Assembly (NCBI GenBank): GCA_013115125.1 | Contig: JABANN010000009.1 | Location: 62,001 to 126,000 of the forward strand | DNA length: 64,000 nucleotides | Reading direction: 5' to 3' | Source: Perkinsus olseni | Taxonomy: Eukaryota | Shown: positions 8,739 to 64,000 of the stretch, in pieces | Numbering within the stretch: position 1 is the first letter of the stretch | Layout of the letters: each line of letters opens with the position of its first letter | Notes under the pieces: generated by a model | Database searches by the model: none | What the model saw: the letters and a program-made list of their open reading frames with translations, nothing else | Told to the model about the DNA's origin: nothing | Program-made: the position numbers and the translations under genes

Positions 8739-11388
8739 ACTCTGTCTCTCTATCGCTGGGAGCCGCGGGGAGTCCGTGATTCTGAGTAACGGCGTCGAAA
8801 TGCCGGTAGTTGGCCTTGGCACCTTTATGTCCAAGGGTGATGAGGTGGAGAAGGCGGTGTACTCTGCGCTTCAACTAGGATACCGGCACATAGACACTGC
8901 TGATTTGTAATCTGGGTGGGTCGGAGGGAGGTGTTTACTAGCATGACTGTCGCACAGATATATGAACCATGAAAGGGTGGGCAAGGCTCTTAAGCGGGCT
9001 ATCGATGATGGAATCGTCAAGCGCTCTGAAGTATTCCTGGTCTCAAAACTATGGCCGACAGATTATCGGGCCGACGTAATGCGACCCAGGGTCGAAAAAA
9101 TGCTTTCCGATCTGCAAGTTGGCTACTTGGACCAACTGCTGCTGCACATGCCGGAGGCTTGGGATTATCCGGGGGAGTCGGACGAGTAAGAGGGTGAATC
9201 TGATGCGGTTTAGCGGGCGTCAGTATGCCCGGAACGCGGACAGGCTATGTGTGAGCGTCGTGTTTTGCTATTGATACAGTGGTGGGGCGTGTTCTACAAC
9301 TTTGGAATTTTAAAAGGCTAATTCATTCCGTAGATTCTCCACACGAAGGTTCGGTAGAGTCACATGATTGACCATCCACTAGAGTCAGTCTGAAAAGTTG
9401 GGCTGCCGAGGTTGGATTGTCGTTCAGTTACAGTCGCTTCTTCCCGACGACAACTGAAGGGCTCCCTGCGGTCAATGCAAGCCATGACCTCGTCGATACT
9501 TGGAGGGTGCTGGAGGGGCTATGCGAGGAGAGGAAGGTAGTCTGACTAGGGGCCCCCTATTAGAGGGAGTGAGTCACTTCATCGCAGGTCGGGGAGCATG
9601 AATCTTCGTGTACTCTGTGGGTCTCTTGTTAGGAGTAACGACATTCGTTCATGCCAGCTGTAAATCTTGTCGAATTGCGGTGCTCGTTGCGCACAGCTCG
9701 AGCGAATAGACTGTCTGAGCTGCACGTTCGTATATACTGCAGTCTGTGATTGCCCGGTTGAATGAAAGTTCTTCATGTCCTCCTTTCATTCGAGGCTCTC
9801 AACTCGACATTCTCTTGCCCCTAAAATTGAGAATCTCGTAGTAATCAGCCTCGCAACTGTCCGCTGCGGTTGTGTTGAGGTATGCATTGTTCGGCCAATC
9901 TTGGCCAGAATTTCTAAGGGCCTCAAACTCGGCTCGCCACGCCTCTTGCATTGCTGGCTTCGTACTGAGGTAGCGGAGGGGAATCGGTCGTCAGAGTATT
10001 TAGTCTGACGAACCCGAACAACAGACCGCTGCCAGGGTTCGCCTTGGACTCTCACGACCATGTATTATCGTTGCTAAGCCCATGGTCAATTGATTCCATT
10101 CATACAAGTCATAAAATGACTTCCCGGCTCCTACTGCCAGAGCGGGTACCAAGAGAACGTGAGAACCAACGCTATCCACTGGATAGTATCCAGCGCACCG
10201 CCAGTGCCGCACTGGGGCCCCTGTACTTCCATGCAAATTTTCGACGCGATCTGGGTGGCGGTGTTGTACTACCGCACGTCCGCATCTTCGTTCAAAGGTT
10301 CGCTCAATCGGAGTCAGCAACTTTGACATTGTACGGATGAGACACTTGCTGCGTGCGGCTCGGATCAAGCCAGCAGTGAATCAAGTTGAAGTAGTCACTA
10401 GCTAAGCGCTCATTCATCACAAGTCCCTTTCTCGAGGTACATCCCTTTTTGCCACAAAAGGAGTTATTGGAATTCTGCAGAGATGAAGGCGTGGCAATTG
10501 TCGCCTACGCTCCGCTCGGGGCTCCTGCATACCCGTGAGACCTGATTCTCACGAGTCTAGCTACTTTCACGCGAACGAAGGATTTGTTGTTCTAGGTATG
10601 ATCATGATGGGCCCCTGCCTGACGTGCTCAACCACCCCACCATCCGGACTCTCGCTGACAGGCATGGGAAGAGCGCAGCACAGGTAGGCCTCGGGGGCGC
10701 CTGAAGGTACTGTATGCTCACACAGGTTGCGATACGCTGGGCTATTCAAAGAGGGACCATAGTGATACCGAAGAGCGTTCACAGGGCAAGGATCGAGGAG
10801 AATTTGGATGTCTCTGATTTCGAGCTTTCGCTGGATGAGATGGTAAGCATTGCCTTCGGTTCTCTCAAAGGGGATCCCTCGTCCCAATACGGGAATGACG
10901 AAGAGCGATCGGAGCGTACTCCTATTAGGAGTCCTAGCGTCTAAGAAGTACCTCCTAGTACCTATTAGGAATGTTATTACGCGCGTACTCCAGCTGAGTA
11001 AGCTGGAGCTTTCTGTTTAATCTGTCATCCGTTCGCACGGACTGGATGGTATCAGTCGGTCTGTTCTTAGGAGGAGCGGTTTTTTATCCCTCTTGCGTCG
11101 CTTGAATTTCGATAGATCCATGTTGGATCAATAATCGCTGCTAACTTCAACGATTAAGTTAGGCGGTAAGGTTGAGCATCACATGCCCTTCGGCAAGGTC
11201 AGTGACCTCAAGTCACTCGAACGCCGGAGTCGTTGCCGCTCTGTACAGGAGATCTGTGGCTTCAGGCGTATATCGATGATATTGGCCGAGCCCCGGAAGA
11301 TCACATTCGTGCTTTCACCCTTCCCTTTGCTGCGGATGGCAGCAGTATCTTCGAACAGACTAAGTTGACCTTGATGGAGGAACTTTAA
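8739..11388 (+). CDS. aldo-keto reductase (spliced; 5' end uncertain)
   Basis: Exons [16 protein letters not shown]...GYRHIDTA / [11 protein letters not shown]...FLVSKLW...[10 protein letters not shown] / DTWRVLE / VRSIGVSNF...PAVNQVE / VHPFLPQ...AYAPLG / [27 protein letters not shown] / AYIDDIG...LMEEL*; D-Y-K-H catalytic tetrad present. Confidence 0.93.
10172..10193. mobile_element. putative transposon excision footprint, 8-bp site CTATCCAG
   Basis: C-TATCCA-C-TGGATA-G-TATCCA-G, perfect pattern, in an AKR intron. Confidence 0.75.
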
Positions 11389-11565
11389 GTGTTGTATGAA
11401 GATGTGGTTGTTGGATTATCCGTTCAGCGCCAGTCTCTTTGCTTTTCGCAGCGACATGGATTTTTTGTTTCTCTCTGGCTTGTTTTGTGTTACAGTGATA
11501 ACGAAGTCGATTATTCAATTTTTTCGTGAAGGTTTCGTTTCCGTGTGTTTCCTCGTGGCAGGAGG

Positions 11566-14500: not shown

Positions 14501-17500
14501 TCCTCGTCTTCTGAGCGACAGAACGTCTCCACTAGTTGCCAGCCCACATCTCATCAGAGAAAGGATTCTACCGCCGCTCGCAGATGTAGTGTTGAAGCGC
14601 GTGCGTGCTGCCGCACCGACCAGGCTTATCAGGTTGCTCTGTCCTTCTCGGCGTTGTGGTCATCAGCGTTGCCGTGCTTGCTGATGGCTCTGAAGTACGA
14701 TGGAGTCTGCGATCCACAGTACTTCCAAGGCCGGATATGGCCGCGTATCCGCCCTCTGTTCAGCGCGAAGGAGATATCTGTCGGTAGGTCGCGCGAGTAG
14801 ACGGCTACTTGTGTTGCATGTCTCCGTCGAGTCTGGGCCGATTTGGGCATATGTGAAGCCTAGGGCGTCGGAGTTCATTATTTGTAAGTGCCGGAGCCCT
14901 AGGATCCCTTTTGCAGCATGTAGAAGGCCTAGGGCTTTGGCGCTTGTAGATATGAGAACGTGTGAAACATGAGCTGATATGCTAGTTCTAATGGCTCAGC
15001 AGACTATCTCGTGGTACGGCACTGTTGATCTGCCGCTGAGAGCTGACCAGGGGTTAGCGATGATACTCTTCCTATTGCTGTTTTCTCAGAGTGCGTGACC
15101 ATCCTCATACGTAACCTCGATCTCTTCATCAACAACACGACGGCCAAGGACGCCAGTGACGTGCTAGTACCATTCGTATTGCGGTGTATCGAGTTGAAAG
15201 AAGATACCATCATCCAGGAGGTAGGTTGGACTCACTTTCCCCTACCCGCGGCACCAGCTCTTATTTCTTCTTACTAGTGCGTTATAGTAGGGACATATGA
15301 TCCGATCTGAATTGCTGCGGTCATTTTAGGTTTTCACCCGATTGCCCCTCCTTCAGCGACGGTTTGAATACACTACCTTGCAGCATGTTTTACTGCCAAG
15401 GATGCTGAAAATGATGACGGATGCCAGCGAGGGGGTTTCAACGAGGATCCGATGTCTTATCATCAACTGCATGCAGGAGATGCTTCCGGTAGGCGGTTGG
15501 GCTCGTGAAGGAATCGAGCGTCCGGGGGCGACTGAGTAGTGATTGAGAGACGGCAGTTATTCTCATCGTGCCGTCGGTGGAGTTGCTGTACGTCAGGTGC
15601 TGGATAATACGACCGTTGTGGGCCCTCTACTAAAGGCGTTGACGGAGACCACCACTACTGATAGCTCCTCTCAGGTAGACGATTGAAACGTGAATGGAAC
15701 GCATTCCTCGGAGAAGCTTGTGTCGCAAAAGAAACTATGTCTCAGCGATCTCATGGATGCTCGTGCGTCCCGCATCAGCACAGGGTGAAGTGAGTACGAC
15801 TGGTTCTCCGGTTTTATTTCTACTTTATCATGTGAACCATCCCCGCGCGAGGCTCGTCCCGAGTCGGGACTTCATGAGCTCCGTTGCTGCTAAGATCGAC
15901 GATGTAGTCGAATCGATACGACGAGAGGTGGAGCGACCAATTTAGGACGACCTCGGCTGCGAACGCAGGTCTCATGAGACCTCTCACCATGATGAACTTC
16001 GTCATGGTCTTCTCGTTGTAGCCCACACCGCGTGAGAGAATCTTGAGAGTGGCGCTCTACCCTACTAGGGGGTGTACCTGACGTTGGAGAGCGACTCTGC
16101 CGATTCGGCAGTGCCGAACGAACTCCCATAACGCTGGCTAGGTCGAGTCGTGGCCCACGACTCGTGGGTGGGAGTCCGATCAGCCTAGAGAGTACTGACG
16201 CATAAACAGCTCAGTCGAGCTTCTACTGGCTTTATCAAGACTGCGCTCTTTGTCAACATCCATGTAGCCTGGCGACGTCAGGCTGACGCTATGTAACTTT
16301 AAGTTTGGTGATCTGATAAGGATGACGCCAGTAAGCGTACGAAATAGATGGAGGCTCAGTATTAAGGGCGGTACTGAGAAGGCCTGTGGGTGTTAAATAA
16401 GGTTGTATGCTACGCTCTCTTAAAGAGAGGCAGTGGTAGCCAAAGAGAGTCTCTTTGGCTACCACTACCGGAGGGGTGGCGGGAACATGAAAAAACATGT
16501 ACTTCTCTGTCTCCAACGAGAAGTGGCACTCAGTCTTCGCATTATTTTGTGGCCCAATTCACAGCGGAATAGCCTTGCAGCACCAGTAACAAGAGAAACC
16601 CTCACAGGTTAGCGACCATTCTGCCAACGTGGGTGTTCTGAAACCGGGCTCGAGGATCCTCTCCTGGCTTCACGAGAAGTGCCCCATAATGATCAATTGG
16701 ACGCTGCTCCCATTAAGAACACCAGTGTGGACTTAGTAGGCGGAGGATCAACCCCTCAGCGTCAAAGCCTGGTCTGAAGTTCAATGCTACTACTAGTAGC
16801 AGGGCTTAGCCCTGCTACTAGCATGGCTAGCATTATGCTAGCCTTTTGCCGTGCATGTCCGCGTCGAGTAATGGCAGCAGCAAGCCAGTTCTCTCGACCT
16901 GGAAATAAGGTCCCGAGCAGCAGGACAGCAGGGCGGTCCGGACAGTATACAGTCACCTTGATGTGGGTCGGAGGTTCTCAGCCCATTCGAGCTGCAGCGC
17001 CTCAGTTAGATGATTGTGTTGCGAGAAAGTGCTGCTTCTCATGCACTACGGGTCTTCGAATATACCAGTGCTCCACTTGTTCGGGAAGGGGTGTTTGGTT
17101 CCGGAAACTTATGCGTAACGGATGGTATGAAGTTGCCTACTTTATACCATTTCTTACGCATTAAGTTGTCTTCGTTGGAAATTCTCTGTTGGCAAAGTTC
17201 GAAATCTAGTCTTCGCCGGCTTCGGCTGGGCCGGAGGTGCTCTTATTCCGTCCAGGGAGTTTGGCATGGGTTCATTCTTCAGGTGGTGGCGGCACTGGGT
17301 GAAATTTACGAGAAGATCAGTGAGAATCTTGGTGCCAAGCTTACGGCGACGAAGGTGAGACCTTGAGAAAACAGGTTAGACTCTGGGACTAACAAAACTC
17401 CAATTCGAACGAAGTTGCGAATTCCGTGTTTCGAGCACGTAAGCATCGTAAGACGTCCTCAGACTTACATTTATGCCGAGTTCTTCACACTTTGTGCATA

Positions 17501-18877
17501 TTAGACTACTCTCCTACATGTCCTAGATTGTGTGCAGGGCCTGTAGCGAGTTGAAAGCTTCAGCGTAATCAGATGACGATGTACGGTACCGTGGTATTGA
17601 CCTGGCGATGTGTTTCGAAATGGCTCGCAGGTGATAGCGTGAAAAGTGTTCTGGGCTGCGTCAGGTCCTGCCCTGTGTGACGCCTCTGATGGCGAATGAG
17701 GACCTCACATTCGAGCAGTGGAACCGCATAAACGGAATCATCACTGGGATGGTCGACAGAGTCGTCTGTTGGCGAGAGAAAGAGTAAGTGTTTAGGAATC
17801 TTAGGTCGCTCCTTGTCAATCGCGGGACCGAAAGATGCGATTCATCTCGGTGTACGGAGCAAGTATCGTGTATTGCAGTTACCGCCACCGCACGGATGCA
17901 GGGAGAGAAGCCTCCGCAGCGCTCGGTGCATCAGCGCCCCCTCCTCCGCCGTCAGTGGGAAGTCGCAAATCCACCTCGTCGGGTGCCTCCGATCTGATTG
18001 ACTTTGATACCCTCCTTATGGGTGGCGCGCCATCAGAACCTTCACAGTGAGTGGCCGGGTGAGGGATGAATGTCACCGTTCGATGGGTGTTGGTTGAATT
18101 TTCGAGGGACACTCTTGGAGTTGTTTCTGGCTGGCATTTATGGTCATCCTACTTTCCAATTTTGTCTTTTTCTTGGCGCATTGTTCACGGCCTGAGCAAA
18201 TATATCGTCTATCGCAGTTACCGCCCCCGCACGGACACAGGAAGAGAAGCCTCCGCAGCGCTCGGTGCATCAGCGCCCCCTCCTCCGCCGTCTATTGGAA
18301 GTCGCAAGTTCACCTCGTCGGGTGCCTCTGCTCCGATCGACTTGGATCTCCTCCTCATGGGTGGTGCGCCACCAGAACCTTCACGGTGAGTGCTCGGGCG
18401 AGGTCACCTTTGACCCATCAAGATCATCGCACAGTTAGTTTTGGTTGAGATTTTGACGATTCTTCAGTGAGTTGCTTCTGTGGTGGTCCTACTGCTCGAG
18501 TTGGTCTTCTTCTTGGCACATTGGTCGTGGCCTGACCTTACAGGCGCTATGGCCGCCACGCACTCTCCTCGTCATAAGGCCACTAGGAAATCACATAAAT
18601 GAAATACGGTATTCTAAATACCCATCTACAGCTTCGAGCTCCCAAAGACGGATCTAGCCTCTGAGCGGATGGGAGACTCGAGCGTGTGGCTTGGCATAGA
18701 ACCGGCGTTCAATAATCTTATAGACTCATCATTTTTCGCCCTTGCGTTCTCAGGCCGTCTCGAGCAGCTCCTCCGCCGCCCCCGCAACAGCAACCACTGG
18801 TGCGGACTGGTGCGGACCCGAAGCGGTTTGGTGTGAGGAATTTGGGCAACGAGGATCCCTTTGCAGGGTTGCTGTGA
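11566..18877 (+). CDS. SCYL2: SCY1-like pseudokinase with HEAT repeats (SCYL2/CVAK104-like), about 20 exons
   Basis: MLNNVLNYLTSNKL / VTSGIMRDYEK / ...VFLFEKK / EATVLQRLRHPNIL / ALEFLHHANTCHLGLCP / IFLTPNGRWVLGG / YAAPEM / SDVFSFGL, then HEAT-like exons (ALRFLETLSEKD, ILPPL, VLLPRML), then a Pro-rich tail with DLIDFD and terminal EDPFAGLL*. Confidence 0.88.
13422..13490 (+). pseudogene. degenerate tRNA-like sequence (tRNA pseudogene or SINE head) in a SCYL intron
   Basis: A-box-like TAGCATCACGG, D-loop-like GGACTAAG and canonical GAGGTCGCGGGTTCGATCCC; acceptor and anticodon stems not intact. Confidence 0.5.
16147..16168. mobile_element. putative excision footprint, site GTCGTGGG
   Basis: G-TCGTGG-C-CCACGA-C-TCGTGG-G, perfect. 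Confidence 0.75.
17860..18535 (+). repeat. tandem ~340-bp duplication of an exon plus following intron in the SCYL gene
   Basis: Exons ~17879-18047 and ~18218-18386 encode YRHRTDAGREASAALGASAPPPPPSVGSRKSTSSGASDLIDFDTLLMGGAPSEPS and YRPRTDTGREASAALGASAPPPPPSIGSRKFTSSGASAPIDLDLLLMGGAPPEPS; downstream intron sequences are also similar. Confidence 0.9.
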
Positions 18878-19075: not shown

Positions 19076-19097
19076 TTACGGTGACCGTAATACGGTC
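19076..19097. mobile_element. putative excision footprint, site TTACGGTC
   Basis: T-TACGGT-G-ACCGTA-A-TACGGT-C, perfect. Confidence 0.75.
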
Positions 19098-22163: not shown

Positions 22164-22507
22164 AAGCGTCGAGCGCTCCGAAGATCATCTTCTTCCTGTT
22201 GGTCAGCATCCGTTCGTCAGTTGTTGCTTTGCTAGCGTCCATTCGCTCTAGTCGATCCCCAAGCTTTCTTCATGTTCTGCCCAGTCTATCAGCGTGCCCA
22301 CCGCGAATGAACCAAAGCTAACTAGCCTCGAAGCGGCAGCCGATGGTCCCTGGCCCTGCTTCGCCTGGTGTTAAATCCCCATTGGCTACCACCACGAAAT
22401 GGTTCAGCCTATGGCAGTACAGAGATAGGATGTGTCGTGGAACACCTTCGACTAGCCAAATCTCTCAGTCCAAGGTCACCACGTTCAGTCGTTGAACGAG
22501 TCTCGTT

Positions 22508-22529
22508 CTGCGAACTTCGCAGTGCGAAG
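22508..22529. mobile_element. putative excision footprint, site CTGCGAAG
   Basis: C-TGCGAA-C-TTCGCA-G-TGCGAA-G, perfect. Confidence 0.75.
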
Positions 22530-23036
22530 ACTCTATGCGAACCCGACGGAGACGAGGGAGCTGATGCTGCTTGATAGCATCAGGGGGGCCATTGTTCCTC
22601 GTCGTGGAAAGCAAAGCTGTGTGAGTGACACTTCCGGTAGTCAACGTTGGTGAGGTGATAGATTTTATTTCTGCCTGGACAGTTGGTGAAATGAGCCCCC
22701 ATTATTATCAGACTCTAAAGTATTATCTATGGATAAATTGATGGAGGCTCTTGAAGGTCTACAACTGAATTCGATTGATAGCAATAAGGAGGATCAAATG
22801 AAGGTCAGCGTTAGCAGACTACTAGATTCGACCCATGCTGCTTGTTATATTCCGAACTAACCCAACCCATCATCATAATCGTATTGAGTTCCGCCACTGT
22901 AATTGAGTATTCTACCGTATAGGTTATACTCATTACCAATGAGTCATTGGTGCGAAAGCAAGTTTCTTCCTAGTCGTTGTAGAAAGTATTCCAGCATCGG
23001 AGGAGACGGTGCGACTGCTTACATCAATGGACTGTG

Positions 23037-23058
23037 ATGCTGTTACAGCATTGCTGTA
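23037..23058. mobile_element. putative excision footprint, site ATGCTGTA
   Basis: A-TGCTGT-T-ACAGCA-T-TGCTGT-A, perfect. Confidence 0.75.
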
Positions 23059-29013: not shown

Positions 29014-29035
29014 CCTGTATCATACAGGCTGTATG
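29014..29035. mobile_element. putative excision footprint, site CCTGTATG
   Basis: C-CTGTAT-C-ATACAG-G-CTGTAT-G, perfect, within one arm of an older palindrome. Confidence 0.8.
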
Positions 29036-32411: not shown

Positions 32412-32983
32412 CTGCACTTTTTCTGTTCTTATTGCAACTGTGAGATCGAGCATGCCTCTAGTCCTGTGATACGGGGTTGCGTGATTGTGGCTTTGGACAG
32501 AGGAATTCTAACGACATCAAGCCTGCAGCCCGAAGGGTTCAAACAACGCTGGTCGTCAGAAGCACGAGCCAAACATATTCGCAACGGAGTGCGTGTGAGC
32601 TCGTACTCTGACGGCGTTAATAACAAGTGGTTGGCAGATAGTTTGTTAGAAGGGCATCCCTCGCTATTGTTCAGACTTGGAAACTCTCAGAGTGCAAAGA
32701 GAGTCGGGAGAGAGCTGGTGCTGTCACAGCATTGCTGTGTGTGAGTTTGAAGTCCAACGGCGACAGTACGGCTTAGTTAGGCTAGCAGCACCGACGTACC
32801 TTTCTGAGGGGGATAAGTTCAACCTGTTGGATAGGCTCTGTTTATCAAGCCAAAGGACGTTGCTCTCAGAGCGAGGTCATCGTCAGCTGGGAGCCGATGC
32901 TGATGTCGAATATCCTGAACCGAACCGGTTGATTCTGTTCCACCTCGCACTCATCCATTTCAACGCAAATGCAGCGTAGTCGT

Positions 32984-45745: not shown

Positions 45746-45767
45746 AGTGATGTCATCACTGTGATGA
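45746..45767. mobile_element. putative excision footprint, site AGTGATGA
   Basis: A-GTGATG-T-CATCAC-T-GTGATG-A, perfect. Confidence 0.75.
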
Positions 45768-50888: not shown

Positions 50889-51624
50889 GACGCACCCTGC
50901 CGGTCACGTCAAAGCCCCAATAAAAAGTAGAACTTGCGTACTTTTGCTGCTGCGAGCATGAGCCTAGTTTTATATTTTAAAGTTCCGATGTCGCATTTTT
51001 TACTGATGCTTCGTTACGCCCGTTACCATTTGAGTCTTGATTCGAGCTTGACTGTTTCATTCAGGAGGTGGTTCAGAGTTGGACCAGGGGTAAGTCACAT
51101 AACTTATGTGAGCTTGAGTTCTGCCTTTTATCGCCTTCTATCACCAAGCAGGGTGTTCTTCCTCCACCCAGAAAGCCGGTCAGCGCCGTCGTTTATACCC
51201 ACAGAATAGCAAGCACGCGTATAGCCGTAGATAAGACCCTATCACAGTATACGGTGCTGATAATATGGATTCGCTTGCTCTCTCGCTGAGTTGAGTGCTT
51301 CGCTATGGCCTATCAGTTCTCGACATGATGAAAAAACGTTCGGATCCTCATCAATCGCCACCTAAAGGTTGTGACTCCCTCGCGCCCCTTTACGTCTTGA
51401 GGCGTGCGACCTGGGACAGAGAGATTATTCGGATGCACTGCTCACTATGAGAGGCGCTACGCGAAGGCTGAGCTGCCATACATGCTGCAGGCTCCCGTTC
51501 ACCACGTGCAGCCCAGAAGGAGACGCCAGTAGCGGGCCGTATAGATCGCTCGGGCGTGCTCAGCCAAGCGCCCGAATTTGGAGAGTCTTCAAATTCCATC
51601 CAAGCCGATACGCGCTCTGGGACC

Positions 51625-52406: not shown

Positions 52407-54697
52407 TCGTGGTGTTGTTGTTGTCTATCTGAGATGCTTTTCAGAGGCAGTGGGTTAATGGTATACCGGACCGGATAGAGACCGAGGAAATTATCTGCAA
52501 ATTAGCCTGGATTGGCTCTCGGTCGCCGGCCGAAAGACAAATTCAAGCCTTTCCCAGAAGTCAGAGTTGATTTTTCAGGTTGAGAGTTCGGCAAAGTGGA
52601 CTCTCAGCAAGGCAAAATGCGATGTGCACGTCAGTTCAATGATTTGAGGATCTCGCTCACCCGCGCACCCGTGTGCAAAGGGGGGAGGAGAGATGGTCCT
52701 CCTAGTCATCTTCCCTTTAGGTTTGTTACTTCCTCTAATGGCTGATTGAGACGAAGCCATCGTTAATAATTGCACGATTTGAGTTTTTTTTTCCACCCGA
52801 CCCATCCGGGGTGCAGGGTTCACGCGTCCCACTACATCAAACCAGTGTTGTGTTCGCAAATTGGGACCAGGGGGGCTCAAGATTGTGGATAAGTGTTGTT
52901 TGTCTTGAGTTCTCCCGATCGGAGGTGAACAAAGAAGCCAAGACGCGGTCTTTGTGTTCGGCGGCTCGTTCACCCGACATTTGAATCCGGGTTCGCAGGA
53001 TTGGCTGGACCAGCACAATTCTCTGATCGATCCACACAGAACCTTGTCGTACCACCGCATAGGTACAATGTCTGGTGGCTTCCGGGTTGCGGATTCTGGT
53101 TCCATGATTCGGGCTTGGCCTTCAGTTGGCGGTTCGGAGAGTAACGGACTCACCGGACCGGGCAGCTGTGCCGAGTTTGAGAGTCGAGAACCGACTCGTC
53201 ACATTTGTAAGCCTTTACATTGTAAGGTTGTGGTTCGGTTCTCCCGAGGCCCTCGTCCGGAGCATGATACAACACTGGTTTGCTATAGTGACGACGCTCA
53301 GTCATCGTCCGGTTTCCCCATTGCTACCTCACCTTGGACTGATTGAGCGTCACACTTGCGTTTTAACTCGTGAAGTGTTATGCCATACCACCTACACTTG
53401 TACTTTCGTTCCATGAGAGACACATCAACAACTTTGGACTCGCTATCAGCTGCTCTCTCGGACTGTCCCATCGCCATCATGGAGCTAGGGTTTGAGCTGG
53501 AGAAATTGACGTTCTACTATACGGCTGGCCGGAGTAGGGGCCGAGATGGGATTAAATGCCACCGAGAAATTCTTCGAACATCATGTTCGTAATGTTTCGC
53601 TGAATCAGATTATATGTGTACCTCAGTCTCTAGACACCGGAGTCAGAGACTGAGCTAGACATATGCTCGGACTCAGTGGAAAATTTCCATTGGAAATGAC
53701 GAGTATAAGATTCGAAGAATTCATCGGTGGCAAAAAGTCCCATCTCAGCCCCTATTCCGGCCAGCCGTGGATAGAGTCAGGCAGGGAGACGTCATAGGGC
53801 AAGGGCAGAGAGAACTATAGATCACTCGGGCGTGCTCACCGGAGCGCACGATCGTGGGAGGGGGGTGTTCCCGCAGCCAACATCCCAAAGCCAACATTCC
53901 AGTAACGGGAAGGACCACTGCGAGAATGAGTTCTGACTTGAGCAGTGGATTTTCGGAGTTCCGGTTGAGCTGATAATATTGGTGTAGTGGTGGCTCTGAC
54001 CCCAACCCTGCTTGGACTCCTTTCCCAGCAAGGATCGCGAAAAATCATTATGATCGGATGCACTTATTGTTACCAAGTGAGTAGGCCTACTGCCTAAAGG
54101 ACACCCTAACGCCCTGGAATACTCCAAGTCCAGCGGAGAGCCGAGCGGAGAGCCGATGATGATAGCGATGGTGTGCCGGTTTCGGCATGAAGTAGAGAAT
54201 CGCTAAGGCAGCAAGACGATGAGATTCGACTGTGCTATTGTTGTCTTTGTGTATGGTTCTGCTGTCTCTCTAGCGCTGGTTACATTGACGTATTAGTCAT
54301 TGCCATATTACTGTATAACGATCTGTTACGTTCGTCCACTATCGTACCTCTATAGTACGGTTACCAGGTCTATATTGGGTGTTTAAAACACCGTGTTTTG
54401 TTCACTTAATAAAACCTGCACAATGGATGATATGACATCCTCGCCGCGCTCAGCCATAGTCGTTCGTTTACCAGTGATCCTCATGATAAAAGTCTCTATA
54501 ATAGCTGGCAGGAGATGGGCTCTGGCTGTCAACAAAAGGAGCGCGATGAACTGCAGCATGCTGCACGCGTGGCATTCACGAGGTGCAGGGATGATACGAG
54601 GACGTTTTGAGAGAGTATCCTGCGTATCAGGAACTGATCCATCGCTGCTGTATTTTCCCGTCACTTCGTTTGCAACTTTCTGTGCAACCCTTTTTAA

Positions 54698-55554: not shown

Positions 55555-56453
55555 AAGTGTGTTTGGACTATGCTGCAAATATTTATCCGAGATTTGAGTC
55601 GAATTTTGTGTGGTCAGTGTGGAGTTCGAATTCGGGCGATTGGACTGTTCACGGCCTGGCTGTTCAGCCCACGTTCAGGACGAACGCGTCACAGTCCATT
55701 CATTGATATCGCGATTCCTGGAGCCCTCCTATCTTGACAAAGTGATTACCTCCACGCGATGCAATTTCTGAGGCAAATTGTTGGCCTTCAGCGCAAACGA
55801 GCCATGCAGGCCACGGCGGTGACTCCCAGCTAGGCACCCTGAGGGAGTCCGACCAATTTCATCACTCGAATGATCATAGTCTAGCGAGGCGAAGGTTTCG
55901 GAACGCTACCTATTCGCGTGAATACGCATTGGTAAGGACGAATAAGGCCTTCGAGAACCATGGTCGCTGTGACAAGGGGTCTTGCGGGATGCACACCTGG
56001 TCGTGCTCTGGGAAAAAACGGCCGCACTCCTGCGCGGTACGGCGTGGGTCAACGGGCAAGAGCTCCAGCTGTATGGGATGGCGCATACCGCCACGCTGCT
56101 CTACGCGGACTCAACATCGTGCCAAATTGCTCTCTTGCCAATTTTCAGCATTTTCCATTAGCTGTGGCACGCAAGTTGGCGCAAAACCTCTTGTAGTCCT
56201 TTTGTTATCGTCACTACCACCAGCTACGTTATCAAGGTTTTGGGTTGACTATGAGAGCGACCAGGAGAAACAGCCAAGGGCGAACGGCCGAACACGCATA
56301 CCCAAAGCATTCGCGTGCAAGAGGTGACGCGGCTACCCAACGGACCCATTCAACAAGGAGCTCCTGCAAGCCTACTGGGATATGGTCTAAGCCTTAGACC
56401 ATATCCTCTGAGGCTCTAAGGCATTCAGCCTTGTTGATCGTATCTAACTCGTA

Positions 56454-57245: not shown

Positions 57246-58141
57246 GAGAAGTTCCCTGATCGGCCATGTGAGGCGTCATCATTTCGAGATTAACACGGGC
57301 ACGGCTTGAGTCGAGAGTACACTGCAAGCTCTGCAGTATGATTGTATGGACTATTATTCTGTCGATGCTTTGTAGCACCCATCATCATATGAGTCTTGAT
57401 TAAGGGCGAACTGTTTCATCTTGAGGGCGTTCAGAGTTGCACGCTCGGTGATGGTTCAGTCGGGTTTCTCTTGAGCCCACCAGCTCCTCGACGGTGCATG
57501 CTGCATTCGAGCTGATAGTGTTATTCAACCCTCCCAGAAACGTGTCTGGAGAACGAGCGTAGAACTCTCTCTTACAGTGTTGAGGAAGCACGCTGCTGTA
57601 CGGGTCCTAGCTAGACAGACCAAAAGGCGAGTAGTCAAGCGGCGAGCATATGCCCCGCGAAGATCCCCTTTTGTACCATCGGGGCCCGAATAGAGAACAT
57701 TCTTAAATGGAACCAACCTGCAGGTGAAGCGACTCTACCCAGGCTGCTACCATGGTCACCACGGCATGGTGTCTTGCCACCTGTGAAATAGCATCGGCGA
57801 GAGCATCAAAACGAGTCAGCCCGGACGCTAGACGTGGATCTGTCCCCAAATCGTGTGGCGCAAGGTGTTGGCCCGAGCGATTTGCAGCCAAGTGGCCAAA
57901 CCTCGGTCTATTCGATTGGGGCATGACTAGCCGATTCGCCCCGCGCACAATACAGTGAAATGACGGGGAGAAGCTATCCAGTAGGGGAGCTCTTGCAGGG
58001 CATGTCTTAGATCCCTCAGCACGCACATACTATGCACATGCGTGCTTCAAGTATCCTGGGACAGCCCAACGGATGAGTCGCTTCTTTCGTCTGATGAGGT
58101 TGTTCTCTCAGGCTGCCCACTTTGATACTCGTAGGGAGCTA

Positions 58142-58969
58142 ATGACGGCGTGCCGGCTCAACTTTGGTCTGGCCTTGGCAAGGCCGCCTTGCTAGTTCTC
58201 CCCCTCCTCCAATCTGTGTCCAGCGCGAGGCCCAGGCGTTTCGGCAACATCTCGGAGAGGACCACTTACCATACAGTTCAACTGCCCAGGACAGCAGAGG
58301 GCCTCGTAGCAAGCCCGTCTGCTTTCAGCTCGCCTGTGGGCTGTTCCCCCAAAGTCAGGAGTGTCGTGGAGTACTACTGCGTCAGTGGTACGTACAGTGT
58401 GGGAGACGAAGTCGACCTAACTATCAACTTAAACCTATTCGATGTGAAAGTCCCTACTAAAAGCGTCACGATGGGCATGCAGACCACGTTGAACCAGGGG
58501 AATGCAACTACGATAGTAGGGCTGGCCGGCGGGAGTGCTACCATATTGAAGAAGACCCTCATTATCCTCCTACTCGACGGGGAGATCACGGCGGAAACGT
58601 CAGGCGGCGGGAAGGGGGCATACGACTCCGAACTGTCCGCTTATGTTTCCGACATAGACTTGAAAGGACAGTTGAAACTTGTTTCTGGTACCACAAATAT
58701 CACCGAGTACAACTACTCCTTGCCGGGTTACGTCTATGCTGGTGATCTCTTCGAAATGGGTATGGTTGGCACTGTCGTGAAGAGCAGTGAGGACCCCGAT
58801 GAGCCTGGAGCCAATGCAACTCTTGATCAAAATGGATACCATCAAGGGCTCTCTGTTCGATTGGCGTATCTACGCGGGTCTCATGATTGATTTTTGGATC
58901 TTCCCGGCTGCACCGGTAATCCACGTTGAAACCGACATCGTTAACGACGTGTTGCACCTCAAAGTGTGA
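58142..58969 (+). pseudogene. family A copy 3, disrupted by a +14-bp scar and a 2-bp deletion
   Basis: ATG 58142 aligns with the paralog starts; scar at 58171-58192 gives TAG at 58193; second frameshift near 58820 (ACT-CTTGATC versus paralog ACG-TTC-TTG-ACC); C-terminus ...VLHLKV* matches copy 1. Confidence 0.88.
58171..58192. mobile_element. putative excision footprint, site GGCCTTGC, inside a coding sequence
   Basis: G-GCCTTG-G-CAAGGC-C-GCCTTG-C, perfect; absent from both paralogs. Confidence 0.85.
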
Positions 58970-59875
58970 GCGCCCTTCTGTCCCTTCGAAGGCTTCGAAA
59001 CGGTATATCAGCTCCGATGCAGTCACTCAAAGATGAGCGTGCGCTCCGCTCCGCTAGTGGCTACGCATACAATTTCATATCATAACCATTCACTTGGATA
59101 TTCGCCCGATGCTCCGAAGCGTCCATAACTAGAGTCTTGACTTGAGAGAGATTTTCTCAACTGCCAGGCCGATCAGAGTTACACTAGGGGTGGATCGGGG
59201 CGTTTCTCATCTCTCAACAGCCCTCTTGTTTGGTCGATGCAATAATCGTCAACAGGAAGTCATCGGCGGTAATATCGGACCGCCGCAACTACCGAGACGC
59301 TACAACGGTCACAAATAAGCACGGCGATGATTCCAGGGAAAGAACGGTACCCGACTGAGCAGACTTACAATGCAATGAGGGTGCACTCAAAGCACCAACT
59401 GACAGCGGCAGGGAATTGAATTTTGATTTGGGTATGTTGTGCAGCTGTGACTCGATGCTGTGAACCACATGTTACTCACCGCAAGCGGCTATTTGTTATT
59501 GTCCGAGCCGCTCGGATTCCGCTGGTGCGCTCGGACCGAGCGCACCTTCCCGCTAGAGCCATGATTGATCGGGCGCGCTCGTTGCCGCGCTCAAGAAATT
59601 TTGAGTTACCAGTTTCCAGTTTTTGAGTCGCGAAAACTGGAGACTTTCTGATTTCCACGAAAACGGCAGAAGTCCGCTCCCAAGATGCGCTCCGCAAATT
59701 GACTCCATAAAATACACCTGGTGCTGTTAGTCCCAACTCACCGTGAGCACCTCGATCTTGGCCGTGGACTCGTAGCAGCAACTTACTGGGCACAGTTGAG
59801 CACAGAGCAGCCGAGTCTCAAGTGCGCAGTAAACGAGGCTGTGAACATTGTCAGGAACACCTAGTATCTCACCTT

Positions 59876-60735
59876 ATGCCCTCCTTTCTGCACTCCATCT
59901 TGAACCTGACGACGGTTCTGAGCTCGGTTATGGCCTTGCGAGGTGCGGTAACCGCGAGTGCCCGATCGTATGCCAGCAGACTGTTCACCAGGCTCGAACT
60001 TCCGTCCAAGTGTCTCATCCGGCCCAGCAGACCAGAAAGGTAAGGGGAGGCGTGTGCGTGAGACTCTCACAGTGAGAGTTTCTAGTCTAACGCCGGTTGC
60101 TCCGGCTTAGTTAGACTCTTGCCGATGTGCTCAGTTGGAGGCTCTCTGTAGCGTTGAAATGCAGTGCACTCAGACAGGTTGTCAAGAAGCTTGCATTCGG
60201 TGGTGGGAATCGTCGTCCAATCCCCTCGGCTCAGAATCTGCTGGACTCCATATCGAGGCTGACGCGGAGTCCTGCAGAATCATCTATCCGGACAGCTCCG
60301 TGTATCTGCACATGAGTTTCGAAGTCCAACTCGTCCGCTGGGACGCGAGGGAACCGCAGAACATGTCCGCAACCTTCGGGTGAGTTCCAGCATTGGTTTT
60401 TTACACCAGATGACTTCTTCAGGACCTTGAGAAATCGGACAATGAATGTCCGCTTTACGAACGGCAACCGGGGGCGAAGCGACGAAGGACCCGTCAAGGA
60501 CATTATGAAGAGATACGCAAGCTTCTATCCCTTCGCTCGTCTTAAAGGCCCAATCAAGCAGGCGTTTAAAGATGGAATGGGGAGAGAAGCATGCACGGAC
60601 TTGGCCGCTAAAATTAGAGCAACCTCTCCCGGAGGGTATGAGAATTCTACTGACTGGGTCAAAGAGTTCTTCCTCATAAATATTGATAAGGCTTTGAAAG
60701 TGGCTGAACGACATACGAAAGTTAGGAAAGTTTGA
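59876..60735 (+). CDS. secreted protein, family B copy 3 (spliced)
   Basis: Signal MPSFLHSILNLTTVLSSVMALRGA; IEADAESCRIIYPDSS...RWDAREPQNMSATF; RYASFYPFARLKGPIKQAF...DWVKEFFL. Confidence 0.82.
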
Positions 60736-61224: not shown

Positions 61225-64000
61225 CTACCCACTTCTTGAAGAGGGCGGGCTGGCCGTAAAACTGAGAGAAGCAGAGCAATCCGTCAACCACCGTCCCTGG
61301 AGCTTTTCACCTCCCTCAGTGTCCTCACGACCGCCTCTCCTTCGGCCTTGGATAAATCCGGAGAGACCAAGTCGGCCCGTAGAAGCGTGAGCTCCTAAAG
61401 AACGCAATTCGTACTGTACGTGGACATGAGATTAGTACCTTAGACTTGAGCAGGTCGTCATAGAAATTCAATACCATGAAAGGAGGCGCTTCTGTCGGGT
61501 TGCTCCGATAGTGGTCAAGGAAAGTCATTAGGCAGTACCTGAGTTGAGGTTGCATTCTCCTAATTTGCCACACGAACGGGATCCCGGATAAATTTCTCCA
61601 CGCCGATATTCACAAGATGAAGTTAACGAACGACCGTGGGAACGCCGATCATTCCCCGACGGAGGGAACTAGCCGCCGTGACCGTTAAGTACGATTAAGA
61701 ACCGAGTCGTTCAGTACTTTCCGTCCTGTATTTGGGAGACCATGTTGAAGTAGCCCTCGGGTTTCTGGACGGGAACGATGAACATGGGGCAGGCCAACGC
61801 ACTGAGGGAAGATAGAGTGATTCCCTCCGAACACATCCGATGGAGATCACAGAACTACTCACGCAGAGACCTTCAAAACAGAACCTTACTTTTTGTGGAA
61901 AATGTCCCACTCGGGTTTCGCTATGACCGCGCCGATCGACCGTGGCTTCCCATTAATATGTTCCAGCCACATCGATCCTGAATCAAAATTACTGATGAAC
62001 CGTGCCACGGTTACCGTGGTGTCTCAAACACCTTATCCTATCATCAAGCACCGGAAGAAAGTTCGCCAAGAAAGTAGGAGCTCTCGAGACTCCGAGTTGT
62101 CATGTATATTCCGACAATTCGAGCAAACCCCACCAGCTGATAGCACACGAAATCATATTCATCCTAATTATCAGAGAATCTTCACCCGAATCGGAGAGCC
62201 ATTCCCGCTGACCCGAGAACTTTTCCGCAGAAGAGGAATTCGAAGAACTCCGATTTGCGCCGAATCATTTGGTCCGTTGAGGGCCTCATTCCGAGGACGA
62301 TTCCATGACAATTAGAGGAGGGCATCTCTCAGAGGCGACTCCAGAGCCGATGGATGACATGGAAACACAACCCTACACGGCTGAAAATCCGACGCACATG
62401 TTCCTTTACAATAACGCCTCATCGGAAAACATGTAATACATCGGAGCTCCACTGAGACCGGGGTGTGGATATATAAACAGCAGTGCTATCACAACACCCC
62501 AACGTGAAGCAAGGTGATCAGCCCTGCCCATGGAGCATGGCGTCTCCGGCGTGATGAACCTCATACAGGGTCAGACCGGACGCATCATACACATCTTAGG
62601 CATACGCTGCCATTCTACAAGGTCTCCTGCGATCGAGAGCTCAGTTTAATTCACGGGACGCGGTGACCATTAACACGGCATGACTGTAAAACGTGGACGA
62701 ATTGACGGCATATGTTCTCATTGCCGAGCTACCATCGCCTTATCCATATCTATCATGCGTTGGACAACATTGCCACCCAGACTGCTCCCCCAAGCGTCGA
62801 TTCAATCGCTTTGAAAGACTCACACGTAGGTATCCACGTGTCTGTTGGGTATCAGGTAGAAGATTACTGGGAACATACTGCCCGACTCGGGCCGCACGAG
62901 TACTGTCAACTGCTGAGTCCACTTGGGGCAACACCGCTCGAATGTGCCGTCCATAGCCAAGTGTACCGCCAGCTGGTCTAATAAGCACCGAGTCCGACTC
63001 GGCCAGTCGTACCAGAGCAGGATGCGATTAGGGTCCTCCGACCCTGTGTCCAGTCAGAGGCTTGGTTGGTTCTTACCACCGACTCATACAGGTTTGCAGT
63101 CCTCTGGGATGATCCATCCCGTGTGAAGAAACACTCCTACGCTCCAAGGAGCGAGAGTTGGAAATTCCAACTTGGAATTTGTGTCATTCGGCCCGAAGCT
63201 CGGGCTCATCTGCATGCCCTCATACCAAGACAAGCGGTCAGCGCCACTGCCCTGGTACCAGGAAACCTCGGTCGCAACCTCAGCAGCTTAGGATCAGCGA
63301 CAGTGGCTCTCTCAGAGCCGTTATTGTGCCGCTAATATTGCTGATTAATATATCGGTGTTACGATCTCCATCCGCCAGGGCGGGCAGTAGAACTCATTGC
63401 GTCGCTACACCCAAGGCATCACCTCTCGTTCGACGTCTTACGAGGGGCCGCATTTGAGGGTATTCGCTTGTATCCATCAAAAGTATCACTGACCGCCTAC
63501 CCCAAACCGAGGGGCACGTGGGCTTTGAGCCCTCCACACCATTCAGGAGCTGAACCGAGGCAGCATATGCACCGCCTATCAGGTCCTTCCCATGACGATT
63601 TCCTACCGCGAATGGCAAACGGAAAATAGCGGAGGTCGCGCTCATTGAGTGAGGCTCAGCATAACTGCCCGATGTATTCCGAAGTTCGGAATCCGAACCC
63701 GTTGGCACGGAATGCACTGATGGAAGATAAAGGAAGCATGAATGAAGCATAAATGAAGTAAATGCATCGGGATCTCCCGCGTTCAGCAAAGTTATTCTGA
63801 AACTCAAAATCGATTTTAGAATCGCTCTGTACACGTAAAATGTGGTTCTCGAACCGATTCTGAGTTTCAGAATCGGCTTATTGAACGACCCCCCACTACT
63901 ACTTATTTTTACTGGCTCCTCTCTCTCGAACAGCGGCAGTCGTACTATCTCATTGAGCTTCTTTGGGATGGGCATGGTGAAGGTGGTTCTGGCCCACCTA
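61225..64000 (-). CDS. hypothetical multi-exon gene, 5'-partial (continues beyond the window)
   Basis: Exon-like frames bounded by AG/GT: WARTTFTMPIPKKLNEIVRLPLFEREEP; NRHGKDLIGGAYAASVQLL...; ALACPMFIVPVQKPEGYFNMVSQIQDGK; YCLMTFLDHYRSNPTEAPPFMVLNFYDDLLKSK. Confidence 0.4.
61998..62019. mobile_element. putative excision footprint, site AACCGTGG
   Basis: A-ACCGTG-C-CACGGT-T-ACCGTG-G, perfect. Confidence 0.75.
63157..63178. mobile_element. putative excision footprint, site GTTGGAAT
   Basis: G-TTGGAA-A-TTCCAA-C-TTGGAA-T, perfect. Confidence 0.75.
63677..63698. mobile_element. putative excision footprint, site TTCCGAAC
   Basis: T-TCCGAA-G-TTCGGA-A-TCCGAA-C, perfect. Confidence 0.75.

Follow-up and report, generated by a model that had tools for sequence, protein, structure and literature searches.

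Recurrent 22-bp scars in Perkinsus olseni, probable footprints of hairpin-mediated, hAT-like transposon excision

A 64,000-nucleotide stretch of the Perkinsus olseni genome (the window) carries numerous 22-bp scars of fixed geometry, which are probably the donor-site footprints of a family of cut-and-paste DNA transposons that makes 8-bp target-site duplications and excises in the manner of hAT elements. Each scar has the layout A-BCDEFG-h'-rc(BCDEFG)-a'-BCDEFG-H, where h' and a' are the complements of H and A. We found no description of such scars in the literature. Perkinsus is a parasite of oysters and clams.

Scar geometry and abundance

A scan of the whole window recovered 14 perfect 22-mers. 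The eleven starts listed in the initial annotation all proved to be perfect (11/11), and those at 5938, 16097 and 54378 are new. No perfect 22-mer occurred in 30 dinucleotide-preserving shuffles. With the core length varied from k=3 to k=11, the signal peaked at a core of 6 alone, with 18 triples and 14 full matches versus 0 in shuffles; k=3 was at chance level (18 versus 18.1), k=4 gave 0 versus 1.0, k=5 gave 1 triple and 0 full matches, and k=7 to 11 gave 0 sites in the window. Four sites (27684, 32718, 53676 and 60057) have a perfect core triple with position 15 not complementary to position 1.

Mutational decay of the scars is graded: sites with 0, 1, 2 and 3 mismatches number 14, 12, 10 and 19 in the 64-kb window, versus means of 0, 0.05, 0.6 and 5.35 in 20 shuffles, and the 36 sites with at most 2 mismatches compare with 0.65 expected. 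We count ~36 scars as secure and ~50 as probable, or one per ~1.3-1.8 kb, all scar counts being those of one 64-kb window. The abundance claimed earlier is thus upheld, though the figure of one per 6 kb is not, the actual density being ~4 times higher. The standard scars are as follows, with coordinates, target and mismatches to the layout (strand "." in every case).

281..302, target CTCAGAAT, 2 mismatches
5938..5959, target GCTTCAAA, perfect, missing from the initial list
7637..7658, target ATTATGTG, 1 mismatch
8356..8377, target GACGCCCC, 1 mismatch
9546..9567, target CTAGGGGG, 2 mismatches, verified intron 9534-10294
10172..10193, target CTATCCAG, perfect, verified intron 9534-10294, abuts the 10194 scar
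10194..10215, target CGCACTGG, 2 mismatches, zero gap to the 10172..10193 scar
11195..11216, target AAGGTCAC, 2 mismatches, verified intron 10842-11264
16097..16118, target CTGCCGAA, perfect, not listed initially, verified intron 15671-17278, retained in X7
16147..16168, target GTCGTGGG, perfect, verified intron 15671-17278, retained in X7
16268..16289, target CCTGACGC, 2 mismatches, verified intron 15671-17278
18601..18622, target GAAATACC, 2 mismatches, flanked by exon pieces 18218-18384 and 18753-18926 (one spliced contig)
19076..19097, target TTACGGTC, perfect
22487..22508, target ACTCGTTC, 1 mismatch, 1-nt overlap with the 22508 scar
22508..22529, target CTGCGAAG, perfect
22929..22950, target CTCATTGG, 1 mismatch
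23037..23058, target ATGCTGTA, perfect, bare 8-mer in sample X7
23180..23201, target ACGCCCTC, 2 mismatches
26866..26887, target CGGACATA, 1 mismatch
27586..27607, target CTTTCACA, 2 mismatches
27684..27705, target AACACCAT, 1 mismatch (position 15)
29014..29035, target CCTGTATG, perfect
32718..32739, target GTGCTGTG, 1 mismatch (position 15)
34832..34853, target GAGGTGAA, 1 mismatch
45746..45767, target AGTGATGA, perfect
51089..51110, target GTTATGTG, 2 mismatches
53676..53697, target GTGGAAAT, 1 mismatch (position 15)
54378..54399, target GGTGTTTT, perfect, missing from the initial list
57750..57771, target CCATGGTG, 1 mismatch
58171..58192, target GGCCTTGC, perfect, in the third DUF6740 paralog (signal-peptide codons), frame shifted
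60057..60078, target CGTGAGAG, 1 mismatch (position 15)
61998..62019, target AACCGTGG, perfect
62879..62900, target TGCCCGAG, 2 mismatches
62988..63009, target CCGAGTCG, 1 mismatch
63157..63178, target GTTGGAAT, perfect
63677..63698, target TTCCGAAC, perfect

Among combinations of left and right palindromic (P) tract lengths, scanned against 10 shuffles, the full 8-nt tract alone was enriched (13 versus 0); the classical 1+1 footprint gave 1 versus 0.8, and for the plain 8-bp tandem duplication the counts were 3 versus 1.0. The sole geometry that fits has an 8-bp duplication and, at the centre of each of the two palindromes, the complement of the base that adjoined the element. Odd palindromes are enriched 10-90 times over shuffles (arm 7, 45 versus 3.6; arm 8, 10 versus 0.6; arm 9, 3 versus 0.1; arm at least 10, 9 versus 0.1), whereas even palindromes show no enrichment (arm 7, 4 versus 4.0; arm 8, 3 versus 0.8). 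This bias is exactly what a nick offset by 1 nt before hairpin formation predicts, and 46 of the 67 odd palindromes with arms of at least 7 coincide with the centre of a listed scar.

The target sites are biased towards A|CTnnnnAG|T, with T2/A7 at 32/84 (P = 0.004), C1/G8 at 34/84 (P = 0.002) and A at -1 or T at +1 at 37/84. The preference is symmetric, lies at and just outside the 8-mer, and is weak (~0.1 bit per position). Hermes, a hAT element, is reported to have a strong T2 and A7 bias (PMC8721813), which the preference of the Perkinsus scar targets resembles.

Compound, nested and abutting scars

The 22-bp product is dominant, as the initial annotation had proposed for a single +14 product, but it is not exclusive, with ~7 non-standard products beside the ~36 standard ones. 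The non-standard scars follow (strand "." in every case).

16415..16456, compound scar, target CTCTCTTT: left P of 8 nt and right P of 18 nt (10 nt past the 8-mer), separated by filler GC
16783..16841, nested scars: standard 22-mer, target AATGCTAG (16783-16792 and 16830-16841), split by 37 nt
21063..21109, compound scar, target GACGGATG: left P of 9 nt and right P of 15 nt, separated by ~9 nt of filler
26637..26657, 21-nt scar, target CTGAAAAC: T-run of the inverted core short by one T
49391..49429, compound scar, target AACTCGTC: left P 17 nt (9 nt past the 8-mer) fused to right P 8 nt
56385..56421, compound scar, target GTCTAAGG: left P of 15 nt, then an 8-nt filler TCTGAGGC that nearly copies the right flank TCTAAGGC; right P 0
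58983..58999, short footprint, target CCTTCGAA: left P 0, right P 3; a small hAT-type footprint of classical form
59502..59542, compound scar, target TCCGAGCG: left P of 8 and right P of 12, separated by filler TTCCGCT that nearly copies the right flank TTCCCGCT

Each of the five compound scars retains a partner copy of the target that is exact over 7 nt, has the complement of the lost base at its palindrome centres, and shows arms of 11-17 nt, of which 4-10 nt are unique flank past the 8-mer; the filler is copied from the flank in two of the five. Arms that continue past the 8-mer are long P-nucleotide tracts, beyond the reach of an 8-nt template switch. The 37-nt insert of the nested pair includes, in our own parse, a second scar (target GCTACTAG) whose site was created within the first. 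Scars attract scars, as seen in this nested site and in two abutting pairs (P = 0.004).

Presence in other samples and direction of the change

Logan contigs of run X1 match 5500-25035 without a single difference, but because X1 may itself be the source sample, the agreement is not independent. Unspliced, RNA-derived contigs of X10, from a separate 2015 study, span 7 scars and show 0 differences from the window over 9879-10308 and 21814-23613. A contig of sample X7 over 15602-17733 differs by only 7 substitutions and one 1-nt gap, so that the scars at 16097, 16147 and 16268 and two local compound scars are retained. The scars are not assembly artefacts, the same sequence being present in contigs from three studies. 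The 19.7 kb covered by contigs holds 17 scars with at most 2 mismatches; spliced contigs place 8 of these in verified introns and 0 in a verified exon, the other 9 being unassigned. The earlier statement placing every listed scar except one in introns or intergenic DNA holds for the 8 of 17 in verified introns, agrees with 0/17 in verified exons and with the coding position of 58171, and leaves 9/17 without placement.

The direction of the change is given by two sites. The third DUF6740 paralog as it stands reaches a stop after 17 codons, but both its part up to 58177 and its part beginning at 58192 are in frame and agree with the two intact paralogs, which keep the signal-peptide reading frame that the 58171 scar breaks. 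At 23037, the diverged sample X7 has an empty allele, the bare 8-mer, and further upstream a separate deletion of 21 bp; this is the one polymorphic scar site seen among the matches listed, and it lies beside that other deletion. The change at 23037 and 58171 runs from 8 bp to 22 bp, i.e. 14 bases are inserted. Empty and scar alleles, two of the three states envisaged in the initial annotation, are thus both represented at 23037, while no occupied allele was found at scar sites among the matches listed in the other-sample contig comparison.

The hAT transposase and the MITEs with 8-bp duplications to which the initial annotation had pointed did not turn up in the window, where 0 of 92 ORFs of at least 110 aa held a transposase domain and 0 elements combined terminal inverted repeats (TIRs) with an exact 8-bp duplication under strict criteria. 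Relaxed criteria gave 1 element versus a shuffle mean of 0.5. The only interspersed element seen in the window is a ~105-nt foldback MITE, which has no readable 8-bp duplication.

Proposed mechanism and alternative explanations

The hairpin-mediated, hAT-like excision originally suggested is supported by the geometry, the odd palindromes, the long arms, the direction of the change and the T2/A7 preference. The transposase, probably of the hAT superfamily, would nick one base into the flank, and each flank would then be sealed as a hairpin composed of 7 duplication bases, the complement of the eighth at the tip, and the other strand. Hairpin opening in this Perkinsus is predicted to occur well off the tip, by 8 to 18 nt or more, and the unfolded 3' tails would bear long P tracts. 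The sole long microhomology common to both tails would be the 8-nt tract h'-rc(core)-a', which replaces the 6-nt core as the overlap previously proposed; annealing there, with flaps past the annealed tract trimmed and gaps filled, would always give 8 + 14 = 22 bp, whatever the opening position. Tails that failed to anneal would be joined directly or with short flank-copied filler to give compound scars. The joining appears microhomology- or polymerase-theta-like, and flap trimming may have left the exactly 8 P nucleotides on one side of three compound scars. The scars would be inherited and then decay by point mutation and, being palindromic, would attract further insertions.

It is unlikely that the same hairpin-and-rejoin process was run by another superfamily, either a MULE that makes 8-bp duplications or an unclassified element related to hAT, MULE, Kolobok or Dada, though the want of a hAT transposase in the window would fit such an agent. 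The MULE Muta1 likewise forms flank hairpins and 8- or 9-bp duplications, but its excision is >90% precise, and its footprint pattern is described by its authors as unlike that of hAT elements (PMC5499845). MULE duplications are typically 8-10 bp, whereas the window shows 8 alone (0 sites at cores of at least 7). Dada elements and Merlin-related ORFs reported from Perkinsus marinus (PMC3706591, PMC8101967) indicate unusual DDE transposons in the genus, but Dada duplications are given as 6-7 bp, and hairpin chemistry is not mentioned for Merlin in the literature found. The 1-nt offset with complement-centred odd palindromes is documented for Ac/Ds (PMC5873905), with no such statement found for MULEs, and the T2/A7 preference matches that of Hermes, itself a hAT (PMC8721813).

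Somewhat less probable again is repair without any transposon, in which breaks that arose spontaneously or were made by a nuclease were repaired through short-range template switching or through synthesis-dependent microhomology joining, or in which a domesticated nuclease cut with an 8-bp stagger. Such repair is consistent with the failure to find an element or transposase in the window, or an occupied allele among the matches listed; flank-copied filler, as in two compound scars, is a hallmark of polymerase-theta-type repair, and in other genomes short template switches are known to give rise to inverted repeats (PMC7954356). Template switching should, however, yield a spread of lengths, and one geometry alone is enriched, while a plain 8-bp staggered cut predicts the 8-bp tandem duplications that are not enriched here. 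Nor does fill-in or switching explain why the outermost base of each copy is lost and replaced by its complement at both junctions, the mark of a 1-nt offset nick and hairpin; palindrome arms that continue into the flank for as much as 10 nt beyond the 8-mer and the symmetric sequence preference also argue against it. A sequencing, library or assembly artefact is effectively refuted: some amplification chemistries can make short local palindromes of this type, but the contigs of three studies agree, the 2015 RNA-derived ones with 0 differences over 7 scars, the diverged sample X7 retains 3 standard and 2 compound scars, and the scars decay in graded fashion, avoid verified exons and carry a target-site preference.

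Excision by a hAT-like transposon accords with what is published for Ac/Ds, whose footprints contain palindromic insertions that have at their centre, as in Perkinsus, the complement of the element-adjacent base; in yeast their arms reach 20 nt, and 85-100% of the joints show microhomology (PMC5873905). The hAT footprints described so far vary in form (PMC5873905), whereas the Perkinsus scars are near-uniform, a uniformity for which we found no precedent in the literature. As probable excision footprints, the 22-bp scars preserve an exceptionally clear fossil history of transposon activity and of the repair of broken DNA in this organism.

Geometry and number of the 22-bp scars

The standard scar is a 22-mer, A-BCDEFG-h'-rc(BCDEFG)-a'-BCDEFG-H, in which an 8-mer target with a 6-nt core (BCDEFG) is extended by 14 bp, and a complete scan of the window found 14 perfect instances. 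All 11 scars placed by the initial annotation proved to be perfect 22-mers, and three more start at 5938, 16097 and 54378. At four further sites the direct-inverted-direct arrangement of the core is perfect and position 15 is not complementary to position 1; the complement rule is thereby satisfied at both centres in 14 of 18 core-perfect sites. Every base of each of the 14 perfect scars is derivable from its own 8-mer, and no sequence is common to the scars. No perfect 22-mer arose in 30 dinucleotide-preserving shuffles. When the core was varied from 3 to 11 nt across the window and compared with shuffles, the sharp peak at core 6 anticipated by the initial annotation was obtained: core 6 gave 18 triples and 14 full matches versus 0 in shuffles, core 3 stood at chance level (18 versus 18.1), core 5 gave one triple, and core 4 and cores 7-11 gave no sites.

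Sites with 0, 1, 2 and 3 mismatches number 14, 12, 10 and 19, respectively, versus 0, 0.05, 0.6 and 5.35 in 20 shuffles, which gives the 64 kb about 36 scars that are secure and about 50 that are probable, spaced one per 1.3-1.8 kb. The deviations in one-mismatch scars, judged by eye, are mainly transitions, as decay would give.

Product spectrum and compound scars

Products were scanned in the form of 7 bases, i left P nucleotides (palindromic bases from an opened flank hairpin), j right P nucleotides and 7 bases. The full 8-nt tract is the sole enriched product in the window (13 versus 0, a low-complexity filter having left out one further perfect site), with the classical 1+1 hAT footprint at 1 versus 0.8 and the plain 8-bp tandem duplication at 3 versus 1.0. 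Odd palindromes exceed expectation at every arm length from 7 nt upward (arm 7, 45 versus 3.6; arm 8, 10 versus 0.6; arm 9, 3 versus 0.1; arm of at least 10, 9 versus 0.1), while even palindromes are not enriched (arm 7, 4 versus 4.0; arm 8, 3 versus 0.8). Centres of listed scars account for 46 of the 67 odd palindromes with an arm of at least 7, and on inspection 10 of the remaining 21, at five sites, were found to make up compound scars, which are non-standard products with longer P tracts.

Non-standard products in the window (P, length of the P tract)
16415-16456: compound scar; target CTCTCTTT; left P 8; filler GC; right P 18
21063-21109: compound scar; target GACGGATG; left P 9; filler of about 9 nt; right P 15
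49391-49429: compound scar; target AACTCGTC; left P 17; no filler; right P 8
56385-56421: compound scar; target GTCTAAGG; left P 15; filler TCTGAGGC copying flank TCTAAGGC; right P 0
59502-59542: compound scar; target TCCGAGCG; left P 8; filler TTCCGCT copying flank TTCCCGCT; right P 12
58983-58999: small classical footprint
26637: standard scar minus one T
16783-16841: nested scars; standard scar of AATGCTAG split by 37 nt containing a second scar on GCTACTAG

In all five compound scars the complement of the missing outer base is at the palindrome centre, and the arm reaches 4-10 nt beyond the 8-mer into unique flank. The word GCTACTAG, target of the inner nested scar, is present only within the first scar. 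Overall, the balance is about 36 standard products to about 7 others. The core-6-only enrichment and the two exact 7-nt target copies in the five compound scars agree with a hAT footprint's 8-bp target-site duplication, and the odd-palindrome bias, complement centres and arms extending into unique flank follow the hAT palindrome and complement rule as given in the excerpted text of PMC5873905.

Scars in sequencing data and direction of change

Contigs from four public sequencing runs were aligned to window positions 5500-25200. Those of run X1 are identical to the window; X1 is the likely source run, so they are not independent, though another assembler produced them. Contigs of run X10, from a 2015 study, omit GT..AG introns, and the run is therefore evidently RNA; its unspliced contigs match 9879-10308 and 21814-23613 with 0 differences, across seven scars. 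Run X7 is a diverged sample with 59% of sampled words, and one of its contigs, across 15602-17733, departs from the window by 7 substitutions and a single 1-nt gap, so little that the three standard and two compound scars of this interval must be retained in it. Spliced contigs from run X9, which is labelled as another organism, are 99-100% identical to window exons across 7289-18926 and presumably represent parasite transcripts within a host sample.

Two independent comparisons at the sequence level, one between paralogs and one between strains, show the gain of 14 bp by an 8-bp site. Scar 58171 lies 29 nt past the ATG of the third of three tandem DUF6740 paralogs, whose present frame ends after 17 codons; both the segment up to 58177 (MTACRLNFGLAL) and that starting at 58192 (LVLPLLQ...RFGNISE...VQLPR...) read in frame and agree with the two paralogs that are intact. 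At scar 23037, X7 carries TGA in place of window 23014-23051, which, read against the window, is tg-ATGCTGTA-tgtgg, that is, the bare 8-mer plus a separate upstream 21-bp deletion. The strain comparison, which the initial annotation had proposed for empty, scar and occupied alleles, thus yielded at least one empty allele, and no occupied allele at a scar site is among the listed rows of the run-contig comparison.

Genes and introns

Pfam identified synaptobrevin, P450, PheRS-beta, PP2C and the three DUF6740 paralogs among 92 ORFs of at least 110 aa. The PP2C exon shares 91% identity with a protein of Perkinsus olseni, the next matches reaching no more than 45% over comparable coverage, and this places the window in a Perkinsus species; five distant PP2C relatives in a metagenome collection (L001-L005) share 33-44% identity, and none is Perkinsus DNA. 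The DUF6740 paralogs, which look secreted, lie at 50073-50888, 56454-57245 and 58142-58890, the third being frame-shifted by scar 58171, and compound scar 56385-56421 is located 33 nt upstream of the ATG of the second.

Among the 17 scars in the aligned region, eight lie in verified introns, none in verified exons, and nine are without assignment.

Verified introns holding scars
9534-10294
10842-11264
15671-17278
18385-18752

Intron lengths in 8556-18752, taken from spliced contigs, are bimodal, with many of 42-61 nt and a few of 242-1608 nt, and the long introns are where scars gather; the 1608-nt intron 15671-17278, whose neighbours measure 42-61 nt, contains three standard scars along with a compound and a nested one. 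A 201-nt direct repeat (17864-18064 and 18203-18403, 339 nt apart, 88% identity) overlaps spliced-contig exons and may be an internal exon duplication.

Target choice, clustering and tempo

For target analysis, 42 reconstructed empty sites were pooled with their reverse complements (84). T2/A7 is present in 32 of 84 (P = 0.004), C1/G8 in 34 of 84 (P = 0.002), and A at -1/T at +1 in 37 of 84, a weak palindromic preference, A|CTnnnnAG|T, as expected from a symmetric enzyme dimer. The hAT target preference nTnnnnAn is therefore present as a weak signal. The hAT element Hermes is biased to T2 and A7 within its 8-bp duplication, according to the excerpted text of PMC8721813, and the window shares this preference, but weakly and accompanied by the C1/G8 and -1/+1 signals; a Hermes-like element was not identified in the window.

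Two pairs of scars abut one another (10172/10194 and 22487/22508), and the chance of at least two such pairs under random placement in 38 kb is P = 0.004. Together with the nested site, these pairs suggest that scars attract new insertions. After background subtraction, scars with 0-3 mismatches number about 14, 12, 9 and 14, and this flatness fits a constant-rate process, under which the classes should be equal in size. With about 12 scars in each class, the rate would be about 12 per 0.045 substitutions per site in 64 kb, roughly one scar for every 240 point substitutions per base. One polymorphic scar against a sample about 1.7% diverged, as estimated from the 59% word share, would be of the expected order.

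Search for the agent and dispersed repeats

Pfam found no transposase domain among the 92 window ORFs. Elements carrying 8-bp duplications, to which the initial annotation had attributed the scars, did not rise above chance within the 64-kb window, where a search for terminal inverted repeats plus an 8-bp duplication gave 0 strict candidates and one relaxed candidate versus a shuffle mean of 0.5. Perkinsus marinus is reported to have Dada elements, which make 6-7 bp duplications, as well as Merlin-related ORFs, in the excerpted texts of PMC3706591 and PMC8101967.

A foldback MITE-like repeat of about 105 nt, with termini CGTTCAAT.../...ATTGAACG, occurs twice in the window, at 20176-20349 (copy 20246-20349, with a truncated inverted partial copy just before it) and at about 63783-63887. 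It is built on 2-4 copies of a CAGAATCGATTCTG-like 14-bp palindrome that has 13 matches with up to 3 mismatches in the window versus 3.6 in shuffles, and it is dispersed in the genome, as contigs of three runs stop at its edges. This repeat was considered as a candidate scar agent but could not be linked to the scars, since no clean 8-bp duplication is readable at its flanks (AAGGGGT/GAGGGTG and TCTCCCG/ACCCCCC). Two tRNA T-arm-like motifs (GGTTCGATCCC) are positioned at 13282-13315 and 13460-13480, where X1 and X7 contigs diverge into unlike sequence, suggesting part of a tRNA-derived dispersed repeat; Rfam and ARAGORN returned 0 matches each on the window, with no tRNA at these motifs. A 36-bp tandem repeat array at 24916-25602, flanking a 99-N gap (25210-25308) and showing very high contig depth, is probably a collapsed satellite.

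Alternative sources of the scars

Short-range template switching or synthesis-dependent microhomology joining, operating free of any transposon, would give inverted copies of variable length and spacing, whereas the enrichment here comes from a single geometry and a symmetric target preference is present. Three other geometries were rejected by reasoning, because none would place complement bases at the two centres: a perfect hairpin on a 7-bp duplication, fill-in of a plain 8-bp staggered cut, and snap-back synthesis. P-element-type footprints likewise arise at 8-bp duplications; their staggered cuts fall inside the element ends and keep terminal bases, hence a common sequence, and this source was rejected because all bases of the 14 perfect scars come from their own 8-mers. 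Ciliate-like programmed elimination was rejected as the main reading, as the scars decay by point mutation, occur in the diverged sample and include one that is polymorphic.

Footprints of Mutator-like elements (MULEs) remain a rival. According to the excerpted text of PMC5499845, Muta1 and other MULEs resemble the window scars in making 8-9 bp duplications and in passing through a flank hairpin intermediate, but more than 90% of Muta1 excisions are precise and the footprints are said to differ from those of hAT, whose rule the window scars obey; precise events would leave no trace here. MULE duplications of 8-10 bp are usually 9 bp, whereas the window duplication is strictly 8, with 0 sites at core 7 (a 9-bp duplication), though Muta1 is able to make 8 bp. 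Overall, we consider it probable that the window scars are a record of hairpin-type transposon excision, and somewhat less so that the agent is a hAT element in the strict sense.

Proposed mechanism and comparison with known systems

In Hermes excision, the transposase cuts the strand carrying the element 5' end at a point one base into the flank, and the resulting 3'-OH of the flank attacks the opposite strand. The scar geometry is what hAT chemistry of this kind would give. The left hairpin would unfold to A-core-h'-rc(core)-a'-(flank complement) and the right hairpin to (flank complement)-h'-rc(core)-a'-core-H, leaving the 8-nt h'-rc(core)-a' as the only long tract that both tails would share. 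Annealing at this tract, with flap trimming and gap filling, is predicted to yield the 22-mer whatever the opening point beyond 8 nt. Tails of 8-18 nt are directly visible in the compound scars, and in three of these the tail is exactly 8 nt on one side; we read such a tail as probably a flap that had been cut back to the edge of the microhomology by the time the joint came apart, the alternative being a nick exactly at 8 nt. The flank-copied filler is reminiscent of polymerase-theta-type joining.

Hairpin-sealed ends opened off-centre also give palindromic additions in Ascot-1 of Ascobolus and in V(D)J coding joints. The hairpins of V(D)J recombination are not known to carry a 1-nt offset, which makes for even palindromes, and they yield P tracts of 1-4 nt, whereas the window palindromes are odd with P tracts of 8-18 nt. 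Footprints of Ac/Ds in plants, Saccharomyces and Candida, as described in the excerpted text of PMC5873905, are palindromic insertions with, at their centre, the complement of the base bordering the element, and share with the window scars the 8-bp duplication, the complement-centred P-nucleotide palindromes, the capacity for long arms (up to 20 nt in yeast) and joints mainly at microhomology. Those footprints are heterogeneous, 128 Candida revertants having yielded 28 kinds, and short P tracts dominate in them, whereas in the window one product dominates, in which each tail is unfolded for 8 nt or more and the joint uses the whole 8-nt overlap; moreover, the window record is dense, inherited and genomic, while the Ac/Ds data come from a reporter assay. 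The scar chemistry is the already known hAT footprint rule, and what is unusual here is the near-uniform product, the P tract length, the density of the inherited record and the use of scars as targets.

In Amoebophrya, a related myzozoan parasite, thousands of introns carry terminal inverted repeats of 8-20 nt and direct repeats of 3-5 nt, according to the excerpted text of PMC7789003. These non-canonical introns and 'introner elements' resemble the window scars in having no family-specific sequence and no matching transposase, but their repeats bound both intron ends, whereas those of the window form a 22-bp unit. A common origin is speculation, as is a contribution of hairpin-type repair in Amoebophrya.

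The literature search, with supplements and Yu et al. 2004 outside its coverage, returned no description of such scars in Perkinsus or of a uniform 22-bp hAT footprint, and nothing on hAT or end-joining genes in Perkinsus; the excerpted text of a genome-editing paper (PMC8062965) held no information on Perkinsus repair genes.

Implications for Perkinsozoa

Tentatively, and with somewhat less than even confidence, we propose that Perkinsozoa mend hairpin-capped breaks near-deterministically, by opening at least 8 nt from the tip and polymerase-theta-like annealing at the 8-nt microhomology, so that essentially every imprecise excision would leave a +14-bp scar. The genome would then hold an account, open to counting and dating, of excisions in the tens of thousands, a figure extrapolated from about 36-50 scars per 64 kb to contig sets totalling about 42 Mb; the scars would be preferred targets, lengthening introns and killing genes, and the element population driving all this would be small, highly mobile and almost never caught in place. 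Weakness or lack of Artemis/classical end joining might underlie such a repair route. Visible effects in the window are the frame shift of a DUF6740 paralog, a scar-laden long intron and the apparent seeding of further insertions.

As the scars are invisible to homology-based repeat finders, the same signature may hide in other genomes. If the proposal is true, excision, which is normally nearly traceless for cut-and-paste transposons, would become a quantitative record, datable by decay and comparable between strains, and its product spectrum, dominated by a single microhomology join, with direct joins bearing flank-copied filler as rare exceptions, would reveal the in vivo repair of hairpin-capped double-strand breaks in an unstudied group.
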